From: an uncultured Acidobacteriaceae bacterium
Lineage (GTDB): Bacteria; Acidobacteriota; Terriglobia; Terriglobales; Acidobacteriaceae
NCBI GenBank assembly: GCA_963767745.1
Contig: CAVYFF010000001.1
Location: 116,614 to 180,613 of the forward strand
Direction of reading: 5' to 3'
DNA length: 64,000 bases
Shown: positions 1,922 to 31,130 of the stretch, one piece after another
Numbering within the stretch: the first letter of the stretch is position 1
How the letters are laid out: each line of letters opens with the position of its first letter
Notes under the pieces: generated by a model
Databases searched by the model: none
What the model was told of the DNA's origin: nothing
Seen by the model: only the letters and a program-made list of their open reading frames with translations
Translations under genes and position numbers: made by a program

Positions 1922-2091
1922 GCCTTGCTCCTTGCCGTATTTAGGGCGGAACTTAAGAGCAACCTCGACATCCTATCAAGTTAGATGCTGACCTGTTCTT
2001 GCCCGCAGTGCTCGATGATTTTTGAAGCCATCGCCTGTTGCGGGACGTCATATTGGGAGAACGTGAGGTCGAGAAACTGCGAGGAAGCGCG

Positions 2092-3105: not shown

Positions 3106-3158
3106 ATGAACACACAGCACGCCATAAGCGCTAATTGTCTAGGTTGTTCCCCCAAACT

Positions 3159-3718: not shown

Positions 3719-3734
3719 ATCGCGCAATAAGTTC

Positions 3735-5261: not shown

Positions 5262-5410
5262 AATTCCTCCTGCAAATGGGTCGACAATCGGCTCCTGCTA
5301 GGTTCAAGCTACCATTTTCTATCGGGCAACCACGGCGTCCCTACGTCTAAGTATCACCACCACCTATTGAACTGGACCGCGCCCCCGGCGGCAGGAGGCT
5401 TAGCCCCTTG

Positions 5411-7070: not shown

Positions 7071-7075
7071 CCTGG

Positions 7076-9709
7076 CTACTCCGTCCGCAACGCCTGCATG
7101 GGGTCGATCGAAGCGGCGTGCCGCGCGGGGATGAGAGCAGCGATGAACCCGCAAACGGCAAGCAATACGCAGACCCACAAGATCGTGGTTGGATCGTGTG
7201 CGCCGACGCCAAAGAGGAAGGCTTTGATGGTTCGGGTGGCGATCCAGGAGCAGGCAAGGCCGGAGACCAGGCCCAGGCCCAACAAGAATCCTGCCTTCCT
7301 CAGAATCATCAGCGTGACGTCGTCTCGTTGCGCGCCCAGAGCCATCCGGATACCCAATTCTCGGCTTCGGCGGCTCACGGAATAGGTTATGAGACCATAG
7401 AGGCCAACCATCGCGAGAAACAGAGCCATGCCGGCAAAAACGGTGAGCAGCGTAGTTTGGAACCGTCGCTGTGCGCTCGCCTCCGATACCAGGTCGCCCA
7501 TCGTGTGAATATCGGCCAACCCAAGGGCTGGGTCGATACTCTTCAGGGTTGCTCGAATCTCGGCCACCAGGGCAGACGGTGGAAGCTCCGAACGAACAAC
7601 GATCGATCCGCCGTCATAGTCCGGGACATACATCTGTGGCTGTGGCGTTTCTTCCAGGCTGGTATGGCGCACATCCGCGACTACGCCCACGACAGTACTC
7701 CATTGAGTATGGTTGTCGTCAGTACTGATCCGTCCGCCAATCGGATTGCGGTTGGCAAAATACACTTTGGCAAATTGTTGGTTGACGATGGTTGGCCGCG
7801 AAGTGCTGGAAACATCGCTCTCGGTAAAGAAGCGCCCCGCGATTAGCGGAATATTCATGGCTGAAAAATATTGCGGTGTGACGCCACGTCCTTCGGCCAT
7901 TTGATCTTTCTCGTTCGCGAAGCCCTCTACCCAAAAGTACCCCAGGCTTTCGGAATGAGTGAGTGGAAGGTAGTTGATGCCGCCAGCCACGTTCACCCCC
8001 GGAAGGGCGCTTATTTTGCCAATGAGATTGGCGAAGAATGGGCGACGTTGCTCCGGTTGTGAATAGCGCGCGTCAAGCAGGACGTTCATGGTGACCGTGG
8101 ACGGCGAGAACCCTGTGTCGACCGATTCGACGTTCAGGTAACTGCGGATCAGCAGCCCGGAGCAGGCAAGCAGCACCACCACCATCGCCGCCTCCACGAC
8201 GATCAACGCGCTTTGCGAGCGGCTGTGCGTGGGCACCGGGTTGAATGCCAGGAAACCGGCAGGGCTCACCCTGGAAACAGCCAATGCCGGCAGAATGCCG
8301 GTCAACAGGCTGGTGAGCAGAGATACGCCGACAGTAAACAGCAAGACCCGCATATCCAGCGAAGCTTGATTGAGGCGCGGAATATTGCCGGGGTCGAGAT
8401 GGGGCAGGATGCGTAGAAAGATCCAGGCCAAGCCAACTCCGAGGGCTCCCGCGGCAACGCCGATCAGCAGCGACTCGGTAAGCAGTTGACGAATGATGCG
8501 GCTGCGGCCCGCTCCCAGCGCGACCCGCATGCCAAGTTCGCGCATCCGGTGAGCGGCCCTGGCCAGAAGCAGGCAGGCCGCATTTCCGCAGGCAATTAGC
8601 AGCACCAGAAACACCGCACCAAGCAGCATCCACATGAGGGGACGCACCGGGCCGAGGGCGGTGTCCAGGAACCCCTTGATGAACGCGCCCCAACCTCTGA
8701 GGCCGGTATGAAGCGCGTCCAGGCGAGTCATGATGGTGCCCATTTCCAATTGCGCCTGACTCACCGAGACCCCGGGGCGCAAACGAGCGATCACCTCATC
8801 GCTTCCCGGTTCGCGATCCATCTTCTGCTTTGGGGTCAGCGCAAGTGGGATCCAGATGTGTGTGGTTTTGCTGGCAGCGACTCCATTAGCCAGGTCGGAG
8901 TCGGATGGGTACTGAAACGACGGCGGCATAACTCCAATGATTTTGTAACTGGTGCCATCCAGGGGAATGGAGCGCTCTAAGATGTCCGCTCTGCCCCCGA
9001 ACATCGAGTGCCAAAGCGAATGGCTGATCACGGCCACCCTCTCATGGCCCGGCTGATTGTCGTCGGCCCCGATCGCGCGGCCGAGTACCGGACTCGACTG
9101 GAGAGTCGCGAAAAATCTCTCGTCCACGCGAGCAGCGCCCATCCGCTCCACCGAACCGCCTAACGCGAGATTGAACGTTGCCTGCTCAAAGGCGGTCATG
9201 TCGGCGAACGAATGGCTCTGTTGCTTCAAGTCGTAGAAGTCCGCGTAACTCGGCGTCATGACGTCAGCAGGGATGGGGATGTGTGGGTTGGGCGTGAACA
9301 GATAGACTAGCCGCTCAGGGTCTCCGTAGGGCAACGATCGAACCAGGACCGCATTCACCAGGCTGAAGATGGCCGTACAAGCCCCGATGCCGAGGGCAAG
9401 CGTGAGCACAGCGGTGACGGTAAACCCGGGACTTCTGCGTAGCGTGCGCAGACCATAGCGAGTGTCCCGCAAAAGAGAATCGAGCCAGGGAAGAGTGCGC
9501 TGCTGGCGATGGGCCTGTCTTGTTTGCTCTGCGCCGCCGAGATGCAGGAGGGCCTGGCGCCGCGCTTCCTCGGGCGCCAGCCCGGCGCGGATGCCGTCGT
9601 CGGTATGAAACGCGATGTGAGATTCGAGTTCGGCAGAGAAGTCATCGTCCGAACGGCGCCGGTTGAATAAGCCGAGAATACGAAGGCCGAAGGCTCGCAC
9701 TTTGCGCAT
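7076..9709 (-). CDS. ADOP-family duplicated FtsX/MacB-type permease
   Basis: Intact 877-aa ORF. The N-terminus MRKVRAFGLRILGLFNRRRSDDDFSAELESHIAFHTDD is typical of the family. It has two FtsX-like 4-TM modules and ends DPMQALRTE. It lies directly downstream of a PadR gene. Confidence 0.85.
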   Translation of the reverse strand: MRKVRAFGLRILGLFNRRRSDDDFSAELESHIAFHTDDGIRAGLAPEEARRQALLHLGGAEQTRQAHRQQRTLPWLDSLLRDTRYGLRTLRRSPGFTVTAVLTLALGIGACTAIFSLVNAVLVRSLPYGDPERLVYLFTPNPHIPIPADVMTPSYADFYDLKQQSHSFADMTAFEQATFNLALGGSVERMGAARVDERFFATLQSSPVLGRAIGADDNQPGHERVAVISHSLWHSMFGGRADILERSIPLDGTSYKIIGVMPPSFQYPSDSDLANGVAASKTTHIWIPLALTPKQKMDREPGSDEVIARLRPGVSVSQAQLEMGTIMTRLDALHTGLRGWGAFIKGFLDTALGPVRPLMWMLLGAVFLVLLIACGNAACLLLARAAHRMRELGMRVALGAGRSRIIRQLLTESLLIGVAAGALGVGLAWIFLRILPHLDPGNIPRLNQASLDMRVLLFTVGVSLLTSLLTGILPALAVSRVSPAGFLAFNPVPTHSRSQSALIVVEAAMVVVLLACSGLLIRSYLNVESVDTGFSPSTVTMNVLLDARYSQPEQRRPFFANLIGKISALPGVNVAGGINYLPLTHSESLGYFWVEGFANEKDQMAEGRGVTPQYFSAMNIPLIAGRFFTESDVSSTSRPTIVNQQFAKVYFANRNPIGGRISTDDNHTQWSTVVGVVADVRHTSLEETPQPQMYVPDYDGGSIVVRSELPPSALVAEIRATLKSIDPALGLADIHTMGDLVSEASAQRRFQTTLLTVFAGMALFLAMVGLYGLITYSVSRRSRELGIRMALGAQRDDVTLMILRKAGFLLGLGLVSGLACSWIATRTIKAFLFGVGAHDPTTILWVCVLLAVCGFIAALIPARHAASIDPMQALRTE

Positions 9710-9718
9710 GGCGCCTCC

Positions 9719-10063
9719 TTATGCCTCGCCAGCCGGGGTCAGGAAGCGCGCCAGGATCGCGGTGGTCTGCTCCCATTCGGCGGCCGCTTTCTTCAATTGC
9801 CGCTGGCCGGCTTTGGTCAGCTCGTAATACTTTGCCCGGCGGTTATTTTCGGAGACGCCCCAGTGGGAGCGGATGAAGCCTTCCTGCTCCAGTTTGAGCA
9901 GAGCCGGATAGAGGGTGCCGTAGTTCAACTGCAGCAGATCGCCGCTGGTCTGCTCGATCCGGCGCGCGACACCATAGCCATGGAGCGGACCGAGCGTCTC
10001 AAGCGTGCGCAGAACCATCAGCGCAAGAGTTCCTTGCCAAACATCGGTTTTGTCGCCCACCAT
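9719..10063 (-). CDS. PadR family transcriptional regulator
   Basis: Within ORF 9719..10216, with the start moved to MVGDKTDVWQGTLALMVLRTL. The winged-helix core is GPLHGYGVARRIEQTSGDLLQLNYGTLYPALLKLEQEGFI. An AGGAG Shine-Dalgarno sequence precedes the ATG. Confidence 0.85.
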   Translation of the reverse strand: MVGDKTDVWQGTLALMVLRTLETLGPLHGYGVARRIEQTSGDLLQLNYGTLYPALLKLEQEGFIRSHWGVSENNRRAKYYELTKAGQRQLKKAAAEWEQTTAILARFLTPAGEA

Positions 10064-10092
10064 TTCTCCTATGGTTACCCAATAGGAGAAAT
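10062..10092. promoter_or_regulatory. perfect 11-bp inverted repeat ATTTCTCCTAT-N9-ATAGGAGAAAT overlapping the SD and ATG of the PadR gene
   Basis: Read directly. On the mRNA strand, one arm contains the AGGAG SD and abuts the start codon. It is either a candidate PadR operator or an SD-sequestering hairpin. Confidence 0.4.
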
Positions 10093-10293
10093 ATAATCTC
10101 CGACCTACGGGAATGCAAGAGTTGGAGGGAATCGACGGGTGCCCCACGTTCGCCCAAGCGTACGTGGGACGAAAAGATGGGCGAAGCCCAACGACCGCTC
10201 TCGTTACATCAGACACAGAAGGGACCGGTCAGCGTTCTTCGAGGAACTCAGAACGACAGTCCTGGGTGCGGCCTTCTCCAGCGCCGCGTGGCA

Positions 10294-10440
10294 GTCGGGA
10301 TGACAATTCATCTTGGAAACTATACTTAGCGTTCCCAAACAAAATTGTCATCCCGACCGGAGCGTAGCGTAGTGGAGGGATCTGCGGTGCGCCCTTCGGG
10401 CTTCCCAAATTCGGGAGTTCTCACGCAGACTCTTTAGCTC
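10294..10440. repeat. family B palindromic intergenic repeat (core GTCATCCCGACCGGAGCGTAGC..GGAGGGATCTGCGGTGCGCC)
   Basis: Perfect 15-bp inverted arms GTCGGGATGACAATT (10294-10308) and AATTGTCATCCCGAC (10343-10357). The tail is shared with 30880-31130 and 34670-34740. Confidence 0.85.
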
Positions 10441-10463: not shown

Positions 10464-12904
10464 CTACTCATAGCGCAAAGCAACCATCGGATCTACTTGG
10501 TGGCTCGATATGCCGGCAGATAGCAGGCCAACAGGATCACCAACACGATCAACAAGGGAACCACGGAGAAAATCAGCGGATCAGTGGCTTCCAATCCGTA
10601 GAGAAGACTTGCCATGAATGCGTTTCAGCAGCAGCGCGCCGAGCTACGCCTGCGACAACCCCAGCAATAGCCAGCCTTCGCCCCCTGCGCAGAATCAGAG
10701 ACAAGACCTGCCTGCGAACGCGCGCCCAGTGCGATGCGAATGCCGATCTCCCTGGTGCGCTGTGAAACGGAATAGGCCATGACGGCATAAACTCCGATTG
10801 CGGCCAAGCCAAGCGCGAGCCCGGAAAACATGCCCAGCAGCGACAGATCGAAGCGGCGCAAAGACCCGGAATCCGTCACCATCGAATCCATGGTCTTCAC
10901 TTCGTAGACTGGCACATTCTTATCGACATCCGCCACCGCGGCGCGAATCGAAGGGCAGAAGATCGCTCTCGCCAAGGGTGCTGCGGATGGCAATGCCCAT
11001 ATTCGCTTCCAGCAGTGGCCGAATTGTGTCGGGAATCTGCGTATAGGGATAATAGGCGGTAGGCTCAATGTCCACATCCGCGCCCCAGTGCCGGATATCC
11101 CCGGCAACTCCCACCACCGTGCACCATGAGCTGCCTTTGAAATCAGGCTTCAGCCGTTTGCCAACCGGGTTTTCTCCCGGCCAATATTTGCGAGCGAGGC
11201 TCTCGCTCACAATCGCGACCGCGGGCGTACTCGCTGTGTCGTGTTCGTTGAAGGCGCGCCCTTGCAGCATCGGAATCTGCAAGGTGCGAAAATAGTCTTC
11301 GCCGACCGCTCGATAGCGGGTAACGATCTCCCCCTGTACGGGGACTGGATTTTTCCCCTCAACAGCAATGGGCATCGAAGGATCAGTGCCGCTCATGGGC
11401 AAGTCGCGAGCCACCGCTGCCGATTGCACTCCGGGCACAGCTTGAATTCGCTCTGCCACCTGCTGATAAAAGTCCGCAATGCGCTGCCCTGTCAACTGCG
11501 AGGGCGCAGCGATGCGGAAGGTCAGCACGTTCGTCGGAACAAACCCCAGCTCGACGCTCCGCAGTGACCAGAGGCCCTTCAGTGCAAGCCCTGTACCAAT
11601 CAGCAGAATGCACGCCAGCGCGGTTTCGGTAATCACCAGCACGGAACGGTGCGTCGCCAAATCCCTGGCTGGTGGCGCTTCCCCGCTCCCTCAGACCATC
11701 GTTCACATCGACACGCGCGGCCTCAATGGCTGGAGCCATCCCAAACAGAATGCCCACCGCCACAGAAATCAGAAGCGAATATGCCAACACGCCACCATCG
11801 ATGCTGACTTCCTCGATGCGAGGAACGCTCGGAGGATGAATCGCCAGCATCCCGCGCAGAGCAAGAAATGCAACGGCAATTCCAAGCGCACCGCCGACGG
11901 ACGCCAGCAACACGCTCTCCGTCAGCAGTTGCCGGACAACTCGTGATGGCGAAGCACCCAGCGCCGTACGGAGCGCCATTTCACGCCGCCGCGCGGATCC
12001 TCGGGCCAGCAACAGGTTTGCCACATTGGAGCAGGCAATCAGCAGCACAAAACCGACGCAACCCATCAGCATCAGCAGCGCGGGCCGCACATCGCTGGTG
12101 AAAGCGTCATTGAACGTCTGGAGATAAACGCCAAACCCCACATCGCCGGTCGCATCTTCGCGGTGCAGGCGGGCCGCAATTGCCATCAAGTTCCGCCCGC
12201 GCCTGCTCCAAGCTCACTCCATCAGGCAGGCGAACAAAGCCGCCCAGCCAGTGAACGTTCGGCGATGAGCCGATTCCGTTGTTCCGGCGCAATTGCAACG
12301 GCGTCCACAGCAACTCCTTGCCGCCGAAGATATCGAAGCCGGCGGGCATTACGCCTACGACGGTATAAGGCGCTCCGTCGAGTTGGATGGCCGTGCCGGT
12401 GATGCGGGGATTTGCTTTATAGCGGTTTTTCCATAAAACGTAGCTCAGCACAACGAAGTTGCCCGATCCTGCAACGTCTTCCTGTGCGGAAAACAAGCGG
12501 CCTAGTATCGGTTGCACGCCCAGCATCGGCAGCATGTCATACGACACCTGGCCGCCGGGAATGCGCTCAGGCTGGTCCTCGGCGCTGCTCAGGTTGAACT
12601 GCCAGTTGACGTGAGCGCCTATCTTCGCCAACAGTCCACCCTGCTGCTTCCAATCGAGAAAGTCCTGGGTAGAGAAGAGATTGAGGTTCCCATTCGCCTG
12701 GCGCTGGGAGACCACCAGCACGCGTGCGGGATCCTTGAAAGGCCAGGGCTTTAACAGCACGGAATGAATCACGCTGAACATCGCGGTGTTGACGCCGATC
12801 CCGAGCCCCAGGGTGAGCACCGCCGCAAGCGTGAATCGACGTGACTTGAGAAGGGATCTGATCCCATAGCGAACGTCCTGCAGCAGGCTTTCCATTGTTC
12901 TCAC
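10464..12904 (-). pseudogene. ADOP-family permease, multiply frameshifted
   Basis: The protein can only be read by chaining ORFs 12107..12904, 11383..12189, 10920..11660, 10625..11107 and 10573..10812, plus a terminal ..SLLYGLEATDPLIFSVVPLLIVLVILLACYLPAYRATK / VDPMVALRYE*. About 6-7 single-nt indels lie near 12190, 11650, 10960, 10735, 10620 and 10497. Confidence 0.8.
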
Positions 12905-12988
12905 CTCTTCGCTTCAGACGATGGTCCCACAATTATGTCAACGAACCACGGCATTCGGATAATTGACCCGCCGACGAAAGCTTTGTTG

Positions 12989-13017
12989 CGCATACCTATT
13001 TGCAAAATAGGTATGCG
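12989..13017. promoter_or_regulatory. perfect 13-bp inverted repeat CGCATACCTATTT-GCA-AAATAGGTATGCG upstream of second PadR gene
   Basis: Read directly, about 22 nt upstream of the ATG at 13039, in the divergent region shared with the decayed ADOP gene. It is a candidate operator. Confidence 0.45.
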
Positions 13018-13038
13018 GGGAATAAGATCAACTCAATT

Positions 13039-13398
13039 ATGGGAAAGAACCCTGAGTTCCGCGATCTTTTCCCCGGTGCGCTGGAGATGATGATCCTGCA
13101 CTCCCTCCGGCTGAAACCAATGCACGGCTACGCCCTGGTCAAACACATCAAGCAGGTTTCTGACAACTTATTGCAGATCGAAGAAGGATCGCTTTATCCG
13201 GCGCTGCAAAGAATGCTTAAAGAGGGATGGGTGCAATCGAAGCCGGGGGTTTCTGCCAAGGGACGTCCGACCCGAATTTATGTGCTGACTCCTGCTGGCC
13301 GGCGCCGTCTCGAGCAGGAAATTTTGAGTTTCGACAAGATGTTTGCGGGCATCACCCGGGTGCTGGCAACCGCTAAAACAGGTTCGCAATTGGTGTAG
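13039..13398 (+). CDS. PadR family transcriptional regulator
   Basis: ORF 13000..13398 trimmed to MGKNPEFRDLFPGALEMMILHSL. The core is KPMHGYALVKHIKQVSDNLLQIEEGSLYPALQRMLKEGWV. Confidence 0.85.
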   Translation: MGKNPEFRDLFPGALEMMILHSLRLKPMHGYALVKHIKQVSDNLLQIEEGSLYPALQRMLKEGWVQSKPGVSAKGRPTRIYVLTPAGRRRLEQEILSFDKMFAGITRVLATAKTGSQLV

Positions 13399-13505
13399 AC
13401 CGAAGCGATAGGCCCTTTCGTGGTTTTCTCCCAAGGAAAACCACTCCTCGCGATCTTTATCAGACCACAGTAATTGCGAAACTGCTTTAAAACATAGGAT
13501 GTCCG

Positions 13506-16130
13506 ATGCGCTGGTTCAAATCGATCTTCTCTCGCCGAAGCCAGTACGACGACCTTTCAATCTCCATTCAGGAGCACCTGGAAGAGAAGATCGAAGACCT
13601 GGTGGAGGAGGGCATGTCGCGAGCGGATGCGACCAACCTTGCCCGCCGGGAGTTCGGGAATGTAACCCTGATCGAACAGCGCAGCCGCGAGGTCTGGCAA
13701 TGGTCTCTGCTCGAGAACCTTGCCACTGACCTGCGCTTTGCCTGGCGGCAGGCTGTGAAATCTCCGCGATTCACCTTTGCAGCCGTCGCGACGCTGGCAA
13801 TTGGCATGGGTGCGCAGGCCACAATTTACAGCGTGGTGCACGCGGTGTTGATCGACCCCTTTCCGTATCGGGACGCGCTGCGTATGGTGCATCTGCACCT
13901 CTACGATAAGACGCCGTTCCCCTTTGACCTGGCAATGACGGGTCCGCAGTTCCTCGAGTTCCAGAAATTGCCAGTGCTCGACGGAGCCATCGCGGAGGAC
14001 CTCTTTAGCCGCGCTCTGACCGGAGAAGAACTACCCGAGCAAGTGCAGACAGCGCGTTTGTCGCCAGACGGGTTTGCGTATTTCGGCGTGCCAGCCCTCC
14101 TCGGACGCGAGTTCTCGCCAGCAGACAGCGCGCAGGTAGCGGTGCTGAGCTATCCGTTCTGGAAGGCGCATTATGCGGCGCGCAACGACATTGTTGGGAA
14201 AACGTTGCAATTAGATCACGAGAACTACACCATCCTGGGTGTCCTGCCGCAGCGTTTTGCCTGGATGGGCTCCGACTTGTACACACCGCTCACCTACTCA
14301 GCCGATCCTCATCGGATTGCCAACGTTTACGGGCGTTTGAAGGTAGGCGTAAGCGACCGGACGGCGGAAGAGGCGATTGGGCCGATGCTGGCCGCGTTCG
14401 CTAAACAAACGCCGGACAGTTTTCCGCCGAACTTCAAAGTGCATCTGGTCCACATCAACGAGCTGCTCGTTGGGCGGATGCGTGGCGTGCTGATCCTTCT
14501 TTCCGTCTCGGTATCGTTCCTGCTGGTGCTGGCGTGCGCGAATGTGGCCATTCTCCTGCTCGCGCGAGGCGAAGCGCGGCAGGCGGAGATTGCGTTACGC
14601 AAGGCTCTCGGCGCGAGGCCGCGGCGAATCGTGACCCAGTTATTAACAGAGTCCTTGCTCCTCTCCGTCACCGGCGGAGTCTGCGGCGTGTTGCTGGCGC
14701 TGGCAGGGATTCGGCTCGTACGGCACTTTCTCGTTCCGTTGCCGGGGCTATTTCCGCCCGAGGCCAACATCGCACTCAATCTGCCGGTGCTGCTTTTCGG
14801 TGCGGTCGTGTCGGTGCTCACGGGGGTGGCGTGTGGCATTTGGCCTGCGGTGCGCACAGCGCGCACGGATCTAAGGCAGGCGGCGGATGCTGGATCGCAC
14901 AAACTGGCTGGGCGAAAGGGCACGCACAACAGCCACATCGCGTTGCTCGGTGGCCAGACGGCGATTACCGTGCTCCTGCTTGCATGTTCGGGCGCGACCG
15001 TACAGAAATTGTCGCAACTGATGCATACCAATCTGGGCTACGATCCGCACCATTTGATTTCCGCGAACTTTGTGTCTCTGGAGGGCGGCCATCCTACCTG
15101 GGGGGATCGGATCCACTATTTCGAGCACATCCGGCAAGCGATTGCTGCGGAACCCGGGGTGATCTCGGCGGCGATAGCACAAGCTGGTATGCCGCCGAGC
15201 TCCGGCAGCCGTATGCCGGTTTCCGTGCCAGCAGCCGACTCAGTCGGCGGGGAGGCAGACCAGCAGCGAGTAGACCTCAATTATTTTCGAACCCTGAAAA
15301 TTCCTCTGCTCCAGGGCCGCGTCTGGAGCTCGACCGAGATGATGAATGCGGCGCATCTGGCATTGATCAACCAGGCGATGCAGAGGCGATTCTTTCCGCA
15401 CACGAATCCGATTGGACAGACAGTTGTGATGAATCGTGGCGTCGTCCCGGCGAATGTGTGGACCCTGGTTGCTCCGGGAACAGATCAGCACTTTCAGATC
15501 ATTGGCGTGGTGGGAGATACGCCGAATCAGGGTCTCGAGGAGCAGATAGCCCCGTCAGTCTTTGTGCCGTACACCGCGATCACTTATGACTGGTTCAACC
15601 TGATCATCCGCACCGAAGGCGAGCCCACTGCCGCGCTCCTGCACAGAATCAAAGAGCGGGTGCACACCATCGACGCTGGCCAGGCGGTGGGCGACATGGT
15701 AACAGCTGAGGACATGCTGGAGGGCGACAGCCTGGGACGGGAGAAGTTTATTACCAGCCTCTTTACCGCATTTGCCTTGCTAGGGCTGATGTTCGCGGTA
15801 AGCGGCCTGTATTGCATCGAATCGTATCTGGTGACTCAGAGGGCACGGGAGTTAGGCGTGCGGATCGCCCTGGGAGCGCAGCGCAAGCACATCGTCAGAT
15901 TAGTAACGCGTTCTTCGCTGCTGGCAGTTGTCGCAGGCACCGCCATCGGGCTTGTATTGGACCTGATGCTGAGCGGGATGTTTGTCCGCTGGACGAGCGG
16001 GAACCCACGTGACCCTGGGATGCTGGCTGTGGTGTCGGCGGTAGTGTTGGTTACCGCCGGATTGGGTTCGATTGTGCCCGCGCAACTGGCGGCCCGGATT
16101 GACCCGATGGAGGCCCTACGTACCGAGTAA
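13506..16130 (+). CDS. ADOP-family duplicated FtsX/MacB-type permease
   Basis: Intact 874-aa ORF. The N-terminus is MRWFKSIFSRRSQYDDLSISIQEHLEEKIEDLVEEGMS.. and the C-terminus is DPMEALRTE. It lies downstream of PadR on the same strand. Confidence 0.85.
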   Translation: MRWFKSIFSRRSQYDDLSISIQEHLEEKIEDLVEEGMSRADATNLARREFGNVTLIEQRSREVWQWSLLENLATDLRFAWRQAVKSPRFTFAAVATLAIGMGAQATIYSVVHAVLIDPFPYRDALRMVHLHLYDKTPFPFDLAMTGPQFLEFQKLPVLDGAIAEDLFSRALTGEELPEQVQTARLSPDGFAYFGVPALLGREFSPADSAQVAVLSYPFWKAHYAARNDIVGKTLQLDHENYTILGVLPQRFAWMGSDLYTPLTYSADPHRIANVYGRLKVGVSDRTAEEAIGPMLAAFAKQTPDSFPPNFKVHLVHINELLVGRMRGVLILLSVSVSFLLVLACANVAILLLARGEARQAEIALRKALGARPRRIVTQLLTESLLLSVTGGVCGVLLALAGIRLVRHFLVPLPGLFPPEANIALNLPVLLFGAVVSVLTGVACGIWPAVRTARTDLRQAADAGSHKLAGRKGTHNSHIALLGGQTAITVLLLACSGATVQKLSQLMHTNLGYDPHHLISANFVSLEGGHPTWGDRIHYFEHIRQAIAAEPGVISAAIAQAGMPPSSGSRMPVSVPAADSVGGEADQQRVDLNYFRTLKIPLLQGRVWSSTEMMNAAHLALINQAMQRRFFPHTNPIGQTVVMNRGVVPANVWTLVAPGTDQHFQIIGVVGDTPNQGLEEQIAPSVFVPYTAITYDWFNLIIRTEGEPTAALLHRIKERVHTIDAGQAVGDMVTAEDMLEGDSLGREKFITSLFTAFALLGLMFAVSGLYCIESYLVTQRARELGVRIALGAQRKHIVRLVTRSSLLAVVAGTAIGLVLDLMLSGMFVRWTSGNPRDPGMLAVVSAVVLVTAGLGSIVPAQLAARIDPMEALRTE

Positions 16131-16162
16131 TTTGGTCCTTTTTAGATTGGACGTCAGCTCTG

Positions 16163-17578
16163 TCACTCCATCTCAAAGGCAACATACTGCAGGACCGACT
16201 GCCGCTCTACTTCCAGCACCACCGCATCGCCGGGTTTGAACCCGCTGAGAACCTGGCGCAACTGCTGCGACTCTTCAGCGGCGTGCCATTCACGGCGCGA
16301 ATCGCATCCCCAACCGAGAGATCCGCCGCAATCGCGGGTTCTCCTCCGAGCAGCCCAATCACCAGAACGCCGGTATCGGTGCGGAGATTGAGCATGGCGC
16401 CTACCTCGGAGTGCTTGAGGTCCATCACAAAAACTCCCAGCGATGCGATCAGGTCTCTCTCGGGCTTAATCAGGTCCGACAGATTATCGACCTGCGGAGG
16501 CGCATTGACGGGCGTGACCGAAATCGTCAGCGGTTTACCATCGCGCAGCACTTCCATCTGGATGGGCGGACCCGCTTGTGGACATAAAGAAAGGCCGTGT
16601 ATTTGGGCAGTGAGTCCACGCGGAATAGGTCCATCCATGGGTGACAACATCCTTTGCATGCAGGCCAGCCGCCGCGGCTGGACCACCCGTGTCAATATCG
16701 GAAAGGATGACGCCCCAGTCCTGCGGTAAGCTTCAAGCCCGCGGCCAGCGCAGGGGTTATGGATTGCGCATGAGCGCCAATGGTTACGTTGGCAACGACT
16801 CCGTGATCCTTCAGCTCGTGGTAAACAGCCCGCACGATCGGTTCCGGAATTGCAAAACCAAGGCCTTCGCTGCCTCCGCCAGAGGTATAAATAAAAGTGT
16901 TGATGCCCACCAGATTGCCGTTCCGGTCGATCAACGGACCGCCGCTGTTGCCGGGATTGATCGGTGCATCGGTTTGCACATAGACCATAGGGCGGTCCAC
17001 CTCGGGCTGCCTCCCGACTGCACTGATAATCCCCTTGGTGACGGTATGATCCAGGCCCTCGGGGGCGCCGATGGCAACCACGGTTTGCCCTAAACGGAAA
17101 TCGAATTGCTCCGGCAAGCGGAATAAAGGGCAGGCCTTTTTCTTCAATTTTGATCAACGCCATGTCCGCATATCGGGTAGTGCCGATCAGCTTTGCTTCA
17201 TACACGCGCTGCGGGTTATGCAGCTGCGTGTTCCCGCTCACCAGCTCAACCGTTGTCGGCGCGATGATCACCCGAATACGCAGCGCGCCGGCGACCACGT
17301 GATTGTTGGTGATGATGTACCCATCAGGGTCGACAATCACTCCCGAGCCGAGTGATCGTTGCCGTACCAGGGCCTGCATTGTCCACCTCCCGATCCTTAT
17401 CGTTCTCCGGAACACCGTAGCCCGTCACCTCAATCTCAACCACAGACTCCATCGCACGCTCGGCAACCTGATCGATCGCCTGATCGTATTCCTTGAGAAC
17501 GGTCGCACTTTGATTTTGCCCACTGAGGGGCAACGATAAGACCGTGCAACCGAGCCAAAGCCAGAAAGTCTTTTCCAT
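16163..17578 (-). pseudogene. HtrA/DegP-family trypsin-like serine protease with PDZ domains, multiply frameshifted
   Basis: Segments lie in three frames: ORFs 17324..17578, 16207..17415 and 16692..17147, plus a terminal SQQLRQVLSGFKPGDAVVLEVERQSVLQYVAFEME*. Motifs TNNHVV and TDAPINPGNSGGPL are intact. At least 5 indels lie near 17375, 17115, 16725, 16650-16580 and 16270. Confidence 0.8.
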
Positions 17579-17592
17579 GGCATGCGGTTTCC

Positions 17593-20500
17593 TTAGCTGA
17601 AGCTGGGCTTGTGGAGCGGTGGCGCGTTGACAGGCGGGGCCGGTAGCTCATTTTCGGCGGTTTCCCATTTGAGAATCTTGAAGTCGAGGACAAAGATGGC
17701 ATACATCACGGGTACTTGCAACTTGGTGACCACGGTCGCCACCAGCAGGCCGCCAATCTGCGCGTAGCAGAGCGGCTTCCACAATGGGCCTCCGTGCAAA
17801 GCCAGCGGCAACAGCGCCAGGACCGTGGCGCCCACTGTAATCAGAACTGGACGGAGGCGCAGGATACCGGCGTCAATCAGCGCCAGCTCAAAGTCATCTC
17901 CCTCGGCATGCCGCTCCTCGATAAAGTCGAACAGCACGATCGAGTGGCTTACGATCACGCCTATCAGGCTGGCCACACCCAGGAACGCCATGAACCCAAA
18001 GGGCTCGCCCATAATCCAGAGTGCGATGAATGCGCCCACCATCCCATAGGGCGCGGCAGCCAGCACCAACAGCGGCTTGATCGCATTCTTGAACTGAAAC
18101 AGCAAGGCCAGATAGATGGCCGCGGTTGAGACGAGCATGACCGTCGCCAGATTCTTGAAACCATTCTTGGTCTTGTCATACTCGCCGCCAATTTGCATCT
18201 CGTATCCGGGAGGAAGTGAGGCTTGTAAGCTCTGCGAGCCGGGGCATCGCCTGCTTCATGATTTCAGAGCTCAGGTGCCCGGGAGCAGGGAAGCTGCGGA
18301 TGTTCATCGTGCGGAATTGTTCCAGCCGCACGATACGCCCGTTGACCAGGTCGTGATCGATGTTCGAGATCTGCACCAGCGGAATCTTGGTGTTGTCCTG
18401 CGAGCCGTAGACATACAGATTCTGAATATCAGAAAGCTGCGCGCGCTCGTTCATGCGCAGCCGGGCAACAATCGGAATCTGCTTCTGGTTTTCCTGCAAA
18501 GACGCTGACCGTGGATCCACTCAGGCCGGCGGTCGACGAATCGGCGACATCCATATTCGTAATACCGGCCAGGTTGGCGCGATCCGGATCGATGGTCAAC
18601 GAGATCAGCGCATTCTCCTCTCCCCACTCATTGCGCGTACGTTGGGCAAGCGGAATAGAGCGGAAGATATCTTCAACCTTGCCGGCGATGTCGCGCAGTC
18701 CGCGGATATCTGCCGCCTCGTCTTTGGCGTTTACATCCGCGGTACTGGAGATGCGGATCTCAATCGGGTAGTCGATGGGGTTCGTGAGCAACTGGCGTGC
18801 ATCCATGCGCGCGCCAGGAATTGAAGCGGTGAGCACCGGCTGTAGCTCTTTGATGAACTGTGGAGTGATTTCCTTATCGGTGACTTCGATCAACACCTGG
18901 GCGTAATTCAATTGTTGCAGCTGGGGCGAGGCAGAGAACCAGAAGCGAGGACCGCCTCCGCCTACAAAGGTGGTAACGTAGTGCAACACATCGCCGGGAT
19001 GATCCTTCTGCGGATGTTCCCGGGAAAACTGCACCGCCTTTTCGCGGACGATCTGCTCTACCTTCTGTGCCGTCTCATTGGTGGCCTCGAGTGTGGCATC
19101 GTTGGGTAGCCATACATCGATGTAAGACCAATATTGAACATCTTCTGGAAAGAACGCGCTTGACAACTGGGCGAAGATGAATCCCCCAGCAACCAGGAAC
19201 AGAAGGGAAGCGAAGAAGAACTTCCAACGATGTTCGATGGAATATTTTGCGGCCCGTGCGTACAGCCCGAAAAAGCCGCTGTTGCGCCGCTCCTCCAATG
19301 TTTTCTCGACCTTCTTCTCCGGCCGCAGAAGGTAGTAGCCCAGCATAGGAAGAAACGACATCGACACCAGGCGGGAGGCAATCAACGCGACCGTCATGAC
19401 AATCGGCAGACTGTGCAGAAACTCCCCCGTGCTTCCCGTTACCAACAGGAACGGCAGGTAGGCAACAATGTTGGTGACGGTGGCGTACATGATGGCGGTT
19501 GCAAGCTTGGTGGGCCCGAGCCATGCGGAGATGATTCTGGGCTGACCTTCGGCTAGTGCACGCTTGATCGAGTCGCCGGCGATCACCGGGTCATCGACCA
19601 ACAGGCCAGGGCGATAATCAAGGTGGCCACAGAGACCTGTTGGATATCAATGCCCAACAGGTACAGCACGCCGAATGTCATCGCCAGGGTGATGGGAATG
19701 GAGATGGCCATCAGCAGGGCGGACCGCCATTCCCAAAAGCCGAGCCATGACACCAGGACCACCAGGACGATGGCCTCATAGAGCGCGTCCATGAACAGGC
19801 TGAGGTTCTCTTCCACCTGCAGCGGCTGGTCGGAGGTACGCGCAATGATCAGGTCCTCCGGCAGATATTGCTTCACCGCCGCGAGCTTGGCGTCTACACT
19901 GCGGCCGAACGCATCGATCTGCTCGCCGTCTTTCATCATCACGGCCAGGGTCACAGCGCGGCTGCGGCGCCAGTGGCCTTGTTTGTCGGCCCAGGTCAGG
20001 TAGTTCAAATACTTCGCCGGGCTTTGGTAGCCGCGGGAAATGTCCACCAGGTCGCGCAGGTAAACAGGGCTCTGCGCTGCTGACTTCGAAGAGCCGATGA
20101 TCACGTCGCCGATTTGCGGCGGGCTCGGTGAATTTTCCTGAAGGATCGATCTGGATGCTCTGCGGACCGACCTCGAGCTGGCCGCCGGGAAGGGTGATAT
20201 TGCGCGCGCCCAGTATGTCCTTCAAATTCGAAGGAGTGTAACCATACGCGGCGAGCCGCTCCTGGGAGTAATCCAGGTAGATCTGCTCCGGCAGCACGCC
20301 TTTGCGGTCAATCTTGGCCACTTCCGGTGCGCCCTGAATGGTTCTTCCCATCAGGTCGGTAAAGTCGTCCAGCTCCCGATAGGAGTACTTATCCCCGGCC
20401 ACCGCGGCCAGACGCATTTCTGTATCCGCAGGATCGCGGATGAAGGCGGCAGGCCAACTGTCTGGATGGATCTCGGAGCTGTGCAACTTCTCCATCACCA

Positions 20501-21292
20501 GGCGATCGCCCAGCGCGCGCAACTCGTCATCGCTCAAAGGAGAGCTGACGTCGGCGCCGATGAAGCCGCTGCCTTGAAAAAAGTGCGGCATCGGAGACAT
20601 ACTTATTTTGCCCGCCGGCCTGCATGACCGCGACAAATGCGTCGCGCACCAACGTCGGCGAAACGGAAAGCGGAAAGGCATACACAATACTGACGCGTGG
20701 CCGTGGAGCGTCGCGCCGACTTCTGCGGCACGCGTGGTTTCGATCGCCTGGCGGATCGCCCTGGCGCGCAAAGCGATATCCACCTCACTCGCCTTGGGGC
20801 TGGCGATGGTCAGCATCAGCGCAGCCGTGTCGCCAAAATCGCTATTGAACTGGATCGGTCCCGCGCCCTGGGGCAGCTTGCTATTGAGCGCGTTCAACTT
20901 GAGATTGATATCGGAAAACTGCTTCTTGGGGTCATTCACCGTGTCATCCAGCTGAACATAGACCAGGGAAAGCCCGGGGAAGCTTATGGAGCGGATGCCA
21001 AAGTCAGACGCCGAAGGAGATTTGATAAAGGCGTTTTGCGCCATGATCTGTTCCACCGGCCGGCTTACCAATTGCTCTACTTCTTGCGCGGTCGCCCCGG
21101 GCCACGCGATCGAAGCGACTGCCACCCGCACCGGAATGCTCGGGTCCTTCCGCTTGGGCATGTGCATATAGCCGAACCAGCCCCACATGCAGACCGCAAT
21201 CAACAGCACCAGCGAAACCGGCGGTGCTCGGTAAAGAAGCGCGCCGTGTTGTGCGTGTGCGCGATGTACTCGGCTTCAGATTTATGTGTCAT
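17593..21292 (-). pseudogene. RND (AcrB/HAE-type) efflux permease, multiply frameshifted
   Basis: Chain of MTHKSEAEYIAHAHNTARFFTEHR.. with ORFs 19776..21209, 19583..20104, 18429..19601, 18176..18520 and 17593..18198. About 7 shifts lie near 21215, 20700, 20578, 20110, 19600, 18510 and 18215. Its start overlaps the MFP stop (ATGA). Confidence 0.85.
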
Positions 21293-22440
21293 GGCTTTGA
21301 TGGAATGATGCGGACTTTGTCGCCGTTCTTATCAAGGCGACACCCGTAGTGATGACCGATTCTCCGGAGTTCAAGCCGCCTTTTGCAGCAATCATATTCC
21401 CGTAGATGTCGCCCAGTTCGATCGCCCGCAAGCGCGCGGTCTCGGTGTCCCCGCCGCCTTCCGCAATCATCACCGCGAAGCCATTGGCGACGCCCCGGGT
21501 CACGAATGACTGCCGACAAGGGAATCGCCAGCACCGATTGCGGCAGCTGCGCACCCTTCGAGCGCCAGCGACGCTATCATTCCCGACTTCAACCGATCGT
21601 GCGGATTGGGGATGGTCACCTCCACCGAGAACACGCGGCTCTTCGGATCCGCCGCCGGTGAAATCGCGCTCACCCTGCCGGCAAACGGCTGCGGGAAAGC
21701 ATCCGTGGCGATGGCAAGATGCTGGCCCAGCCGGACCCGGCTCATCGAAGATATCAGGAACACCGAAGACGGCCTTCACCGATTGCGTGTCGGCAAGGGT
21801 AAAGCCATTGGTGGCCGGCCCGACCAGGGTGCCCAGATCAACATTGCGGCTTACGATCCAGCCATTGAATGGAGCACGCAGCGAGCAGTATGCGAGCGCA
21901 ACATTGGCCTCGCTGAGCTGTGCCTGGGCTCCGGAAACGGACGCCGTAGTGCTGGCAAGCTGGGCCTGGGCGGAGTCGTAGTCGGGCTTGGTTGCGCTCT
22001 GTGAAGCATAGAGCGCAGAGACCCGATCGAAGGTGAGCTTGGCTTTGTCATTATCCGCCTGCGAGCGCGCGAGCTGCGCTTTCGCTTGTTGCACCTTGTC
22101 CAGATAATCCTGCTGCCGCACCACGGCCAGCACGGTTCCTTTTTGTACCCAGTCCCCTTGATCGATATTGCGCATGCCCCCACTTGGGCTCTTTACCTGC
22201 CGAATGCTGTCGACATAGCCGCTTGACTGGAACGCCAGCGTAACCTGCGCGTAGGGAACGATGCTGGCAGAGTACTTCGCTCCGTTGCCCATGGCGATGG
22301 GCTGTACCAGTGCCGTGTGCACAGGGAGGGGCAAGTGTCTCCGCGGCGTTTTGTTGCTTGCACGCGGTCAGGCCGGCCAAAAGGGCGGCAGCCAGCATGG
22401 CGGTCGAAAATTTGGCAGATGCGGGATTCATGGCAGTCAC
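21289..22440 (-). pseudogene. RND periplasmic adaptor (membrane fusion protein), multiply frameshifted
   Basis: Lipoprotein signal MNPASAKFSTAMLAAALLAGLTAC, then segments in ORFs 21282..22334, 21500..21763 and 21289..21534, ending ..KNGDKVRIIPSKP*. About 5 shifts lie near 22330, 21760, 21555, 21490 and 21335. Confidence 0.8.
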
Positions 22441-23775
22441 TCTTCCCCCAGCGCTTTCTCAAAGGCAGCCTTCGCATTCCAGAAGGAAAGCAGGCTTTGT
22501 TCGTAATCATGTTCGGCGTTGGCCACGGCGGCTTGCTGCTGCAGCAGATCGCGCATCAGCACCGCGGACTGTTTGAATTGATCGTTTATTTCGCGCAGCT
22601 TCTCATTGGCTGCGTCCCGGGCCGCCTGGGACACGTCGAGCAGCGAACGGCTCTCCTGGAGCTTGCGGAAAGTGTTGTCGACATCCAGCATCACCTGGGC
22701 CTGCGTTTCCTGCAGCTGGTAGTGGCTTTGCTGGATCGACACATCCTTTTGCTTCACCTCGTCCCGGCGTCCTCCCCAGTCGAAGGGATCCCACTTCAGT
22801 TCCAGCCGGCGGAAAGAATATTCTGCGGCAGAAATCTCGGTGTTGATCGGGTCGAGGTAGTGGATGGCTGCGCCGACATCGGGAATGTACTTGGCCCTGG
22901 AGAGCTTGCGGTCGTAATCGGCGCGCTGGGTATCAATTTCCGCTTCCTTGACTTCGGGCCGCTGCTGCAGCGCCGTTTCCGCGCCGTCTTCAAGTCCATC
23001 TCCGCCGGCGTGATGGGCGGCACCTGCTCGGTGCTAAAGGGGGTATCAAGATCGCGCGCCAGCAGCTCGTTCAGTTGCTCTTTCTGGGTTTGCAGGGTAT
23101 CGCGCAACTGCACGATCTGATAGCGCGACTGGGCCAGCTTCGCTTTGGCCTCCAGGCTGTCCGACTTGAGCACAGATTCCTGGGCCAGATAATCCGTCGC
23201 TACCCGGTCCGTTTCCTCGTATTGCTTAACCAAAGCCTGCGCCGCTTCGAGAGCGCTCTCCGTTTGCAGGGTGGCATAGTACGCCTGCTTCACGCTGGCT
23301 GCGATCGACTGCCGCTGGCCTCTGTATTGCTGGCTGGCCAGATCGGTGGATAACTCCTGCTCCCGGACGGCGAGATGGATCTGGTAAAGCTGGGAGAGCG
23401 GTTGTGCTACCTGCACCGAGGCTGATTCCGGTAATCCCGATTGGAAAGCTTTAGCTTCTGCGGTTGTCTGGTTATCGAACAGATCCGCGGGAAAAGTGAA
23501 CGTCGGGTTGGTTATATCTCCCGAAGCAAACAGATACGTCGTGATGGCAGGGAAACGCTTGGTCTTGGTTTGAGCTACCTCCCACTTCGACTTGACGATA
23601 TCGAGCTTGGCGATGTTTACCGGCCGGTTGTTTTCGACGGCAATCTGAACGGCCTGAGTCAGCGAGAGGACCGGGAGATCGCCTGAGGGTTCTTGTCCCC
23701 GGCGATAGCATCCCGGCCATCAACGCAATCCCGGCAACTGCCCACGGAGAATGACTTTATGTAACGAGCTCGCAT
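22437..23775 (-). pseudogene. TolC-like outer membrane efflux factor, frameshifted
   Basis: The mature part reads QEPSGDLPVLSLTQAVQIAVENNRPVNIAKLDIVKSKWEVAQ.. and continues into ORF 22796..23416. It then reads ETALQQRPEVKEAEIDTQRADYDRK..WDPFDWGGRRDEVKQKD into ORF 22437..22757. About 3 shifts lie near 23745, 23700 and 22990. Its stop overlaps the MFP start (GTGA). Confidence 0.75.
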
Positions 23776-23795
23776 CATTGTTGGACCGTCATCAC

Positions 23796-24487
23796 CTATG
23801 TCAGGTGTGAGCAGCTTAGGAACGGCCTCTCTAGTCCTCCGCCTCCCCCGCCTTGGGGTCCCAGGCTGTTCAGGTCATTTAGTACGGCTTGCCGGTCCTG
23901 GGGACGAAAATCCCCCGCATCCATGGTTTGCTCAATCTCCGACTTCGCCTTCTTGAGCGCCATGAACTGTTGCAGCTTGCCCTCTCCGCTGGTCTTGATG
24001 CTTTGCAGTCCATTCAGACTGTCCTGCAACGTTTCACCTGAGCCTGGGTCGGGTTACCGTGCATCACGGCACCGAATATGTCTTTCCCGAGTTTTGCGCC
24101 CGGGTTCGGTGCTGCTTCGGTCGAGACCGCTGTGGGCTGTTTGGTCGCCATCATCAACTGCAGGTCCTGCTCCAGCGTTTCGCGGTCCGGTTGCTTGACG
24201 CTGGCCATAACCGCCTTCATCTTTGAGACCGCGCCCCAGGGCGTGAGCAGGTCGACGGGCCCGCCCGGTGTTTGGTTTGCCTTGTAGGCCTTCAGGATTT
24301 CTGCGTTGGCCTGCAATTCCTTGAGCTGCGGAATGGTGATGCTGCCATTCAAGACCGCTGCCTTGATGTCGGCTTGAAACTTGTCTTTTGCCGGGTTGGC
24401 GGCTGCATCCTGGGGAGCGGCGAAGGCCAGGGGCAGTTGCGCCGCCAGGACCGCCGAGAGTGAGAGTGTGCGAAGGATCCTTTTCAT
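23796..24487 (-). pseudogene. secreted protein of unknown function, one frameshift near 24030
   Basis: ORF 24014..24487 has the signal peptide MKRILRTLSLSAVLAAQLPLAFA. It continues as ..GNPTQAQ / KTLQDSLNGLQSIKTSGEG.. in ORF 23796..24029, which has a G6 run near the C-terminus. It lies 20 nt upstream of the TolC-like gene. Confidence 0.5.
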
Positions 24488-24559
24488 TTGTTCCTGCTTC
24501 CTTTAGATAGAAGATTGCTTTACTGACTGAATAGCCACGGAACTCATATCAGGCCGCCC

Positions 24560-30838: not shown

Positions 30839-30869
30839 CAGACTTGTCCAAATTAAGCTCGGCCGTCGG

Positions 30870-31130
30870 CGATTCCAATTCATCTTGGAAACGGCACCTA
30901 GCGTTCCCAAACTGAATTGTCATCCCGACCGGAGCGTACCCGGATTTCCTGCCACGCTGCACTGGACAAGACAGCGTGTGCGCCTTTCTGTAAGGGAAAG
31001 GCGCATGAAGTGCACCAACGCCACTAAGTTCCACAGGAAATTCGGGGGAGCGTAGCGGAGGGATCTGCGGTGCGCCTCTCGGCCTTCCCGAATTCTTGAG
31101 TTTGAGCGCACAGTTCTCACTCAGACTCTA
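30870..31130. repeat. family B repeat copy, interrupted by a nested insertion
   Basis: Collinear with 10294-10440, except for 108 extra bp between GTCATCCCGACCGGAGCGTA and GCGGAGGGATCTGCGGTGCGCC. Confidence 0.85.
30939..31046. mobile_element. 108-bp MITE-like insertion with terminal inverted repeats and 8-bp target-site duplication
   Basis: The TIRs are CCCGGATTTCCTG (30939-30951) and CAGGAAATTCGGG (31034-31046), matching 12/13. GGAGCGTA is duplicated at 30931-30938 and 31047-31054. There is an internal 9-bp stem GCGCCTTTC/GAAAGGCGC. The uninterrupted target is seen at 10358-10366. Confidence 0.75.

Follow-up and report, generated by a model that had tools for sequence, protein, structure and literature searches.

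We show herein that five consecutive minus-strand genes (24487-16163) of the window, the whole 64,000-nucleotide stretch of DNA analysed, are broken by about 30 one-base frameshifts that are almost certainly errors of long-read metagenome assembly. Sequence comparison suggests that the errors probably arose through the merging of reads from related soil bacteria. The genes, which in order specify an unknown secreted protein, a TolC-like protein, a membrane-fusion protein (MFP), an RND permease and an HtrA protease, are very likely intact in nature, and the cell very probably expresses them, unbroken, as a TolC-MFP-RND efflux operon in which HtrA is co-transcribed.

Results

An efflux operon split between frames

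The first gene (23816-24487, minus strand) encodes a secreted protein with a 223-aa orthologue, and searches of Pfam and NCBIfam assigned it to no family. It is followed on the same strand by a TolC-family outer-membrane factor (OMF; 22437-23778; 445-aa orthologue), in which Pfam OEP is found in two frames, by the RND membrane-fusion (periplasmic adaptor) protein (21289-22440; 379-aa orthologue), by the RND permease (17593-21292; 1231-aa orthologue), in which Pfam ACR_tran is recovered as at least four consecutive fragments in different frames, and by an HtrA/DegP-type serine protease with two PDZ domains (16163-17578; 471-aa orthologue). The matches to ACR_tran, OEP, HlyD and Trypsin/PDZ run on from one minus-strand frame into another. 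Although fragmentary, these Pfam matches place an OMF, an adaptor and an ACR_tran permease side by side on one strand, the gene content of an RND tripartite efflux system. In the intact orthologue, Pfam finds OEP, HlyD_D23 and ACR_tran; its MFP scores 213 bits against TIGR01730 (cut-off 94.9), and its permease and OMF score below the NCBIfam cut-offs.

As originally described, a GTGA overlap (22440-22437) and a 14-nt gap (between 17593 and 17578) occur; TDAPINPGNSGGPL is encoded at 16973-16932 and TNNHVV at 17310-17293. The gap between the first gene and the OMF gene, given there as 20 nt, measures 37 nt. The predicted ATGA overlap at 21292-21289 does occur, but it is possibly the product of an extra C at 21299, which removes the TAA stop of some relatives; in this region relatives L001, L003 and L019 carry TAA and a short spacer, and the extra C is absent from short-read contigs.

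Frameshifts private to the window

Shifts were counted in a frameshift-aware alignment of the window DNA with the proteins of the intact orthologue from relative L002 (below, "+" marks a base that the window has in excess and "-" one that it lacks). The operon total is 30 (2 in the first gene, 8 in OMF, 5 in MFP, 8 in RND and 7 in HtrA), and an independent method, a phase count on a 30-sequence alignment, also gave 30. Along the corrected path, no stop codon occurs in 2,738 aligned codons, and amino acid identity to L002 is 90-97%, the permease reaching 97%. The earlier claims that the five genes are readable only through frame changes, and that no in-frame stop interrupts the reconstructed paths, are thus borne out. 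The first gene and the OMF gene hold more shifts than the one and about three that had been foreseen; about five for MFP and at least five for HtrA proved right, and about seven for RND falls one short.

The first gene lacks 1 nt near 24031-24033 and 2 nt at 23831, and an extra base at 24489 lies between its RBS and ATG. The OMF shifts are at 23745 (+), 23702 (+), 23471 (+), 23440 (+), 23423 (+), 22978 (-), 22835 (+) and 22805 (-), and those of MFP at 22332 (+), 21749 (+), 21552 (+), 21490 (+) and 21330 (-). RND is shifted at 21220 (-), ~20720 (+), 20711 (+), 20586-88 (+), 20126 (+), 19607 (-), ~18500 (+) and 18236 (+), and HtrA at ~17390, 17377 (-), 17118 (+), 16726 (+), 16639 (+2), 16572 (-) and 16270 (-). 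Intergenic spacers contain indels as well (24489, 23815 and 17588). The A6 run at 20577-20582, once named as an indel site, is not one; the extra base lies at 20586-20588.

Comparison with orthologous operons in relatives, a check that had been proposed, found all these indels to be private to the window among 29 orthologous Acidobacteriaceae operons. Most of the latter are intact, with whole genes of 445, 379, ~1231 and ~470-510 aa. Against 8 relatives, 33 small indels are private to the window within 16.1-24.6 kb, compared with 1-2 each for L002, L003 and L019; in the comparison with 29 relatives, 29 private events of a length not divisible by three were counted. Moreover, short-read contigs from four independent soils, which stem from related populations and not from this strain, argue against at least 26 of the indels. 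The contigs restore bases at 24034, 23831 and 24487 in the first gene, contradict 7 of the 8 OMF shifts (base lacking or restored), and lack the extra bases at 22332, 21552 and 21299 in MFP. They also contradict 21220, 20711, 20586, 20126, 19607 and 18236 in RND, and 17392, 17377, 17118, 16726 and 16269 in HtrA. Reads of the source sample were sought by two run searches and a strict alignment at >=98% identity, which returned related populations only; the best sequencing run contained 12-22% of the window words, in near-identical pieces of only 40-250 nt. Searches for exact copies of the proteins of window genes matched no record.

Undiminished selection and an excess of insertions

The dN/dS of the reconstructed genes, another proposed check, is 0.035-0.15 after indel removal, indicating that purifying selection is undiminished. 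Window-private substitutions (n = 211) fall at codon position 3 in 75% of cases, with 26 nonsynonymous to 138 synonymous changes, and the private substitutions of the intact L002 divide 21 to 142. Nonsense codons, large deletions and IS elements are all absent from the corrected operon. Insertions outnumber deletions (28 versus 12); 16 of the 28 inserted bases differ from the base on either side, and runs of four or more contain none of the insertions. These contexts speak against the homopolymer origin that had been hinted at and rule out homopolymer slippage as the cause, most indels being outside homopolymers. The ~30 sites have heterogeneous contexts, with no slippery or other motif in common. 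Private indels, undiminished selection and the insertion excess uphold the original argument that an indel-only, nonsense-free pattern is not that of neutral pseudogene decay, and they agree with the assembly artefact that had been named as a hypothesis to examine.

A second patch and clean segments

The cluster had been thought sharply bounded, a view contradicted by seven further shifts at 10.46-12.9 kb and two isolated ones. This second error patch is an ADOP-family duplicated permease gene (10464-12904, minus strand; 812-aa orthologue), in which seven 1-nt indels relative to the intact L002 gene, at 12184 (+), 11653 (+), 10956 (+), 10715 (+), 10643 (+), ~10620 (+) and 10498 (-), leave four separate ORFs. 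Pfam MacB_PCD/FtsX/MacB_PCD/FtsX extends over the four overlapping ORFs, and TIGR03434 ADOP supports the family assignment; the gene has no in-frame stop and a dN/dS of 0.13. The isolated shifts lie near 39950 (~39.95 kb), in a second TolC-like gene, and near 57250 (~57.25 kb), in a TIG-domain gene. Other same-strand ORF overlaps flagged by the frame HMM (5408/6129, 32188/34013, 29835/30224 and 60363/62221) are separate genes by Pfam. An Rfam scan of the whole window found four tRNAs only, and nothing in the operon or at repeats.

The adjacent flanks are intact, as had been stated, with the 874-aa ADOP gene, the DUF4410 gene and the 667-aa ORF confirmed; at a rate of 3.6 shifts per kb, their 5.4 kb would be shift-free with a probability of ~3e-9. 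Between the two patches lies a clean 3.2-kb segment (12921-16162), which holds the 874-aa ADOP gene (13506-16130, plus strand). This segment is absent from L002, where both error-bearing blocks are contiguous. The blocks are 2.4 and 8.4 kb long, and their edges track gene and synteny boundaries, not arbitrary chunk edges. Two simple accounts of the error zones were rejected. Conservation level alone does not suffice, as 7805-10120 is clean despite 87% identity to L002, and confusion of the polisher by a near-identical paralogue does not apply, as the second RND operon (35232-41026) is only 25-30% identical at the protein level.

Inserted bases match alleles of relatives

By eye on pairwise alignments, ~9 of 21 indels lay at most 2 nt from any mismatch against ~36% expected, which is not significant. 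A sharper, allele-specific test was therefore used, which asked of insertions whether the added base matches what relatives have at the neighbouring position, and which set the result against a control rate. Non-homopolymer insertions next to a polymorphic site repeat its other allele ("both alleles in tandem"). With only 10 events in the window, 10 of 10 agreed when all relatives were considered (control 0.49; p = 8e-4), and 5 of 10 with the four closest relatives (control 0.15; p = 0.01). With the four closest relatives, relative L038 gave 9 of 15 (control 0.19; p = 6e-4) and relative L035 gave 9 of 10 (control 0.11; p = 2e-8). These insertions thus sit at polymorphic sites and reproduce both alleles, as expected of a mixture of haplotypes.

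The same operon in long-read MAGs

Phase changes in this operon number 29 in L038, 23 in L001 and 15 in L035, and 0-7 in other relatives. The pattern appears at different sites in independent long-read MAGs and is lacking from short-read ones. By name, L038 and L035 are MFD long-read MAGs; their flanks look clean, the clustering being limited to the operon, and L038 after correction has no stops and a normal dN/dS. L001, an ENA assembly with the same contig naming, is error-rich along its whole 22 kb. For MFD-LR MAGs, Nanopore data alone were used, with Flye assembly and a single round of Medaka; those of low coverage are reported to carry Nanopore-associated errors, and errors are linked to long homopolymers (PMC12313526). 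The closest relatives of the window are mostly Nanopore-only MFD MAGs, and three of them show the same defect. The window assembly is most likely of this Flye and Medaka type, like most of the relatives found.

Short-read contig depth (>=85% identity) is ~1.1-3.5x higher over the error zones than over neighbouring clean zones, the contrast being weak in run X4. This higher depth of related sequence is only suggestive.

Discussion

The indels are almost certainly not mutations: no relative shares them, purifying selection has not weakened, insertions predominate and lie mostly outside homopolymers, and alleles stand in tandem. The tandem alleles, together with the recurrence in long-read MAGs, point to a mixed-population consensus as the cause of the clustering, for which none had been put forward before. 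We consider it likely that reads of co-occurring relatives piled onto the conserved operon and that consensus building or polishing failed there. The operon and the adjacent ADOP gene appear to be conserved among co-occurring Acidobacteriaceae, and this part of the contig would therefore have drawn in reads or overlaps of a related population. At positions where the haplotypes differ, the consensus may emit both alleles in succession, yielding a 1-nt insertion, or may drop a base. Strain-unique segments (the flanks and the 3.2-kb insert) would receive their own reads only and stay clean.

The confinement of the errors to 2.4- and 8.4-kb blocks, with isolated shifts elsewhere, would also suit an artefact of another kind, in which locally very low coverage, a skipped or failed polishing step or a collapsed graph bubble left random long-read errors with no mixing of haplotypes. 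L001 is error-rich throughout, as a low-coverage contig would be, and Nanopore-associated errors are reported for low-coverage MFD MAGs (PMC12313526). We regard this alternative as rather unlikely. Raw-read-like sequence should add dozens of substitutions, whereas there is almost no excess (26 nonsynonymous versus 21 in L002), which disfavours it as the sole cause. In addition, random errors would not give the tandem-allele signature, the block edges coincide with gene and synteny boundaries, and the same operon is struck in independent MAGs.

That the operon and the neighbouring ADOP gene are genuine pseudogenes, hit by a very recent burst of small indels, is improbable. The genes are untranslatable as assembled, and no source reads contradict the sequence directly. 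However, true decay brings nonsense mutations, deletions and IS insertions, with relaxed dN/dS and a deletion bias, and mutation-accumulation and pseudogene studies of bacteria find base substitutions to be about ten-fold commoner than indels and deletions to outnumber insertions. Neither relaxed dN/dS with nonsense mutations nor this indel spectrum is seen here: nonsense codons, large deletions and IS elements are missing, and insertions dominate, mostly not of the slippage type. The substitution pattern of the lineage is indistinguishable from that of the intact orthologue, so at most a handful of neutral substitutions can stand beside ~37 indels. Moreover, the inserted bases copy neighbouring alleles of relatives, and the pattern recurs at different sites in independent long-read MAGs, not in short-read ones. 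It is very improbable indeed that the indels are truly in the DNA and that the operon was struck independently in several Acidobacteriaceae lineages (those of the window, L038 and L035). This would require a localised indel-only mutational process or an unknown tolerant recoding mechanism, with purifying selection persisting.

Expression of real indels by recoding (programmed ribosomal frameshifting, transcriptional slippage or RNA editing) would fit a stop-free corrected path under purifying selection, but it can practically be dismissed, as programmed sites are single, with a slippery motif that is conserved in orthologues, whereas the ~30 sites here have no motif in common, none is conserved in any of the 29 orthologues, some indels lie in intergenic spacers, and no known bacterial system corrects this many random-context shifts.

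Annotation should record one intact TolC-MFP-RND-HtrA efflux module here rather than five pseudogenes. The biological import is small, and the case has some value as a lesson in quality control. L038, L035 and L001, which are public genomes and GTDB species representatives, contain the same false-pseudogene cluster. Therefore, pseudogene counts, pangenome presence/absence and completeness estimates of long-read soil MAGs can be locally distorted despite a clean-looking contig. Tandem alleles can be tested without reads, through relatives, and may flag a mixed-population consensus.

The operon resembles tripartite RND systems of the AcrAB-TolC / HAE1 type in its OMF-MFP-RND order with 4-nt coupling overlaps, in its Pfam domains (OEP, HlyD_D23 and ACR_tran) and in an adaptor that passes TIGR01730. 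It differs in a permease of ~1231 aa, with ~110-150 extra residues near the N-terminal periplasmic region, that falls far short of the curated cut-off for each named NCBIfam permease family, and in having an HtrA protease and an unknown secreted protein in the same gene string. As in reductive genomes (Mycobacterium leprae and recent symbionts), several adjacent genes are unreadable in a single frame, but the operon has no nonsense codons, IS elements, relaxed dN/dS or deletion bias. Programmed frameshifting (prfB, dnaX and IS3-family transposases) likewise spreads a functional protein over two frames, but not through ~30 private sites without a common motif. Nanopore errors are classically homopolymer deletions scattered over the genome. 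The window shares with long-read (Nanopore/PacBio) indel errors the single-base indels that break conserved genes, the lack of nonsense codons, the intact orthologues and short-read sequences and the Nanopore-only Flye and Medaka origin of relatives with the defect, whereas its errors are gathered in two blocks, favour insertions (28:12) and for the most part lie away from homopolymers. The 10-16% divergence among the relatives known here is high for classical haplotype collapse, and the second haplotype is in this case inferred rather than observed directly. Like collapsed-haplotype consensus errors, those of the window insert a base identical to the other allele of a neighbouring polymorphic site and seem confined to stretches that relatives share, the 3.2-kb insert specific to the strain being clean.

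Results

An operon readable only across frames

Five minus-strand genes occupy 24487-16163 of the window: g1 (an unknown secreted protein), a TolC-like gene (OMF), an adaptor (MFP), an RND permease and an HtrA protease. Neither ORF listing nor minus-strand three-frame translation revealed a long ORF spanning any of them in 16.1-24.5 kb, and in a Pfam search of the window the ACR_tran model was matched by consecutive pieces in four fragments of differing frames, OEP by two fragments, and HlyD and Trypsin_2/PDZ by further ones. Relatives were collected with the longest RND fragment as query and by a scan of GTDB representative genomes. They are Acidobacteriaceae MAGs, mostly with MFD (Microflora Danica) names, and the five-gene string is whole in most of them, the intact orthologues measuring ~223-285 (unknown protein), 445 (OMF), 379 (MFP), 1230-1235 (RND) and ~470-510 aa (HtrA). 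The nearest by nucleotide identity are the loci L002 (SPRUCE_414; 89.7%) and L001 (88.5%).

Shifts were counted by banded frameshift-tolerant protein-to-DNA alignment with the L002 proteins as reference. This gave 2 in g1, 8 in OMF, 5 in MFP, 8 in RND and 7 in HtrA, and the total of 30 was also obtained by counting phase changes in a 30-way alignment. The frame-broken operon of the original prediction was thus borne out and enlarged, the tally now being 30 shifts in the operon and 7 more in another patch; its per-gene counts were close, except that OMF, credited with about three, has eight. The corrected path contains no stop in 2,738 aligned codons and retains 90-97% amino-acid identity to L002. 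In a MAFFT alignment with eight relatives, 33 small indels were private to the window, as against 1-2 each in L002, L003 and L019; with 29 relatives, private events of a length other than 3n number 29 in the window (21 insertions and 8 deletions). The GTGA overlap, the ATGA overlap and the 14-nt gap described earlier between the genes are all present. However, the TAA stop of L001, L003 and L019 is destroyed in the window by an extra C at 21299, a base absent from short-read contigs, and the ATGA overlap may itself be a product of that C.

Extent of the broken region

The sharp bounds first ascribed to the cluster hold locally, since an unbroken 874-aa ADOP gene lies on one side and the equally unbroken DUF4410 gene and 667-aa ORF on the other, and fail window-wide, where a second patch and two single shifts were found. 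At 3.6 shifts per kb, the Poisson probability of none in the 5.4 kb of intact flanking genes is ~3e-9. The whole window was searched for further shifts with a crude codon-usage frame HMM, and then with Pfam. The second patch is an ADOP permease gene (12904-10464, minus strand), which seven 1-nt indels divide into four ORFs with no stops and a dN/dS of 0.13. Both isolated shifts are also on the minus strand. One, near 39950, affects a second TolC-like gene (39627-41026) upstream of an intact MFP/RND pair (35232-39624); the OEP repeat at the C-terminal end of the TolC-like protein (positions 101-185 of 187 in Pfam) runs on in another frame to 39627. The other, near 57250, lies in a TIG-domain gene (54693-57922), where two ORFs with TIG/IPT repeats, of 286 and 829 aa, share 120 nt; their translations suggest one ~1,100-aa protein split by a single frameshift. 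In L002 the orthologue of the broken ADOP gene directly adjoins HtrA, while in the window a clean 3.2-kb segment (12921-16162) is inserted between them; both dirty patches therefore form one block in the relative's layout.

Recurrence in other genomes

The same operon shows 29 phase changes in L038 (MFD03346.bin.2.69), 23 in L001 and 15 in L035 (MFD00731.bin.2.120), each at its own private sites, as compared with 0-7 in the other 26 loci, among which the short-read MAGs are all low. By the frame HMM the flanks of L038 and L035 appear clean, and corrected L038 has no stops and a dN/dS as in intact orthologues. The MFD long-read MAGs were sequenced by Nanopore only, assembled with Flye and polished by one round of Medaka (PMC12313526).

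As a separate observation, false frameshift clusters of the same kind stand in GTDB species representatives (L038 6618-14216, L035 8639-16206 and the whole L001 locus, which is also fragmented in TPR, kinase and thioredoxin genes). Among the best 120 protein matches to the RND gene, none exceeds 709 aa, versus ~1231 aa for the full protein; many are on short JGI contigs, and a dozen or more are on contigs of 30-680 kb, so that long-contig assemblies, too, frequently break the gene up.

Origin of the frameshifts

We are confident that the frameshifts are not biological and represent an assembly or consensus artefact. The most telling evidence came from private insertions of a single base unlike either neighbour, which were compared with the relatives' allele at the adjacent column. 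In the window the inserted base equalled that allele in 10 of 10 cases when all relatives were considered (control 0.49; p = 8e-4), and in five of ten with the four closest (control 0.15; p = 0.01); the corresponding figures were 9/15 in L038 (control 0.19; p = 6e-4) and 9/10 in L035 (control 0.11; p = 2e-8). A SNP rendered as both alleles in tandem is the product of a two-haplotype mixed consensus, and is predicted by neither random read error nor mutation. Short-read contigs (≥85% identity) lie on average 1.1-3.5 times deeper on the operon and on the broken ADOP gene than on their clean neighbours, the contrast being weak in one of four runs, and the clean 3.2-kb insert is a segment missing from an L002-like relative. 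From the tandem alleles, the raised depth and this insert we infer that the conserved module would have attracted reads from a co-occurring relative during assembly or polishing. Consensus of a mixed population is thus the probable mechanism; that the errors arose from other assembly causes is a distinctly less likely account. The 7805-10120 segment is equally similar to L002, yet clean, so conservation alone does not predict error zones, which would depend on the relatives present in the source sample. The source strain's reads were not found, the best public runs containing 12-22% of the window's words and related populations only; the window's sequencing technology and local coverage are inferred.

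A real, recent inactivation of the operon is very improbable. The ortholog comparison proposed with the original prediction gave, with indels removed, dN/dS values against L002 of 0.035 (RND) to 0.15 (g1). Where four close relatives agree among themselves, the window differs by 211 substitutions (75% at codon position 3; nonsynonymous:synonymous 26:138) and intact L002 by 204 (78%; 21:142); given this likeness, the ~37 indels can have been accompanied by no more than a few neutral substitutions. In known bacterial mutation spectra substitutions outnumber indels about ten to one and deletions prevail over insertions; here 28 insertions stand against 12 deletions. Sixteen of the 28 insertions match neither neighbouring base, and no insertion falls within a run of at least four, which rules out replication slippage as their source. 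Intergenic spacers carry indels too (24489, 23815 and 17588), so the indels are under no selection in either direction. Short-read contigs of related populations, drawn from four independent soil metagenomes, contradict the window at 26 sites or more, having no extra base where it has an insertion and the missing base where it has a deletion. Recoding of real frameshifts can practically be dismissed.

Discussion

To judge from gene order, the efflux module is placed in a rearranging neighbourhood. The junction downstream of HtrA differs among relatives (window 12921-16162; L002 16246-16261; L001 14650-18979): L002 has nothing there, the window a 3.2-kb ADOP gene, and L001 an orthologue of that intact gene, separated from HtrA by an extra 4.3 kb encoding a histidine kinase and a response regulator. 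On the upstream side, g1, DUF4410 and the 667-aa gene are missing from L038 as well. A ~120-nt palindromic repeat element, without a family in Rfam, occurs at 10294-10415 (arms 10294-10320 and 10331-10357, matching itself on both strands) and 30865-31096 of the window, and at 1882-2007 and 14702-14881 of L001, where a copy immediately downstream of HtrA marks one edge of the 4.3-kb insert. Its word depth in soil short-read contigs is 1,800-8,000, versus ~10-50 around it; it resembles REP or MITE elements and seems to be present in very high numbers in soil Acidobacteriaceae. A second intergenic stretch of raised depth (76-491), at 13171-13837 just upstream of the intact ADOP gene, contains a 30-nt imperfect inverted repeat (13374-13403 and 13460-13489).

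The appropriate reading of the locus is an intact OMF-MFP-RND efflux operon that also encodes an HtrA-type protease and an unknown secreted protein. Searches of the intact L002 proteins against Pfam and NCBIfam confirmed the gene identities and gave no family for g1; the adaptor passes TIGR01730, and the permease and OMF match at the family level only. The L002 permease (11128-14823, corresponding to window 21292-17593; ~1231 aa) scores far under the cut-offs of all named NCBIfam RND families. Its residue 281 aligns with position 125 of the Pfam ACR_tran model, and it therefore carries roughly 110-150 extra residues in its N-terminal periplasmic region.
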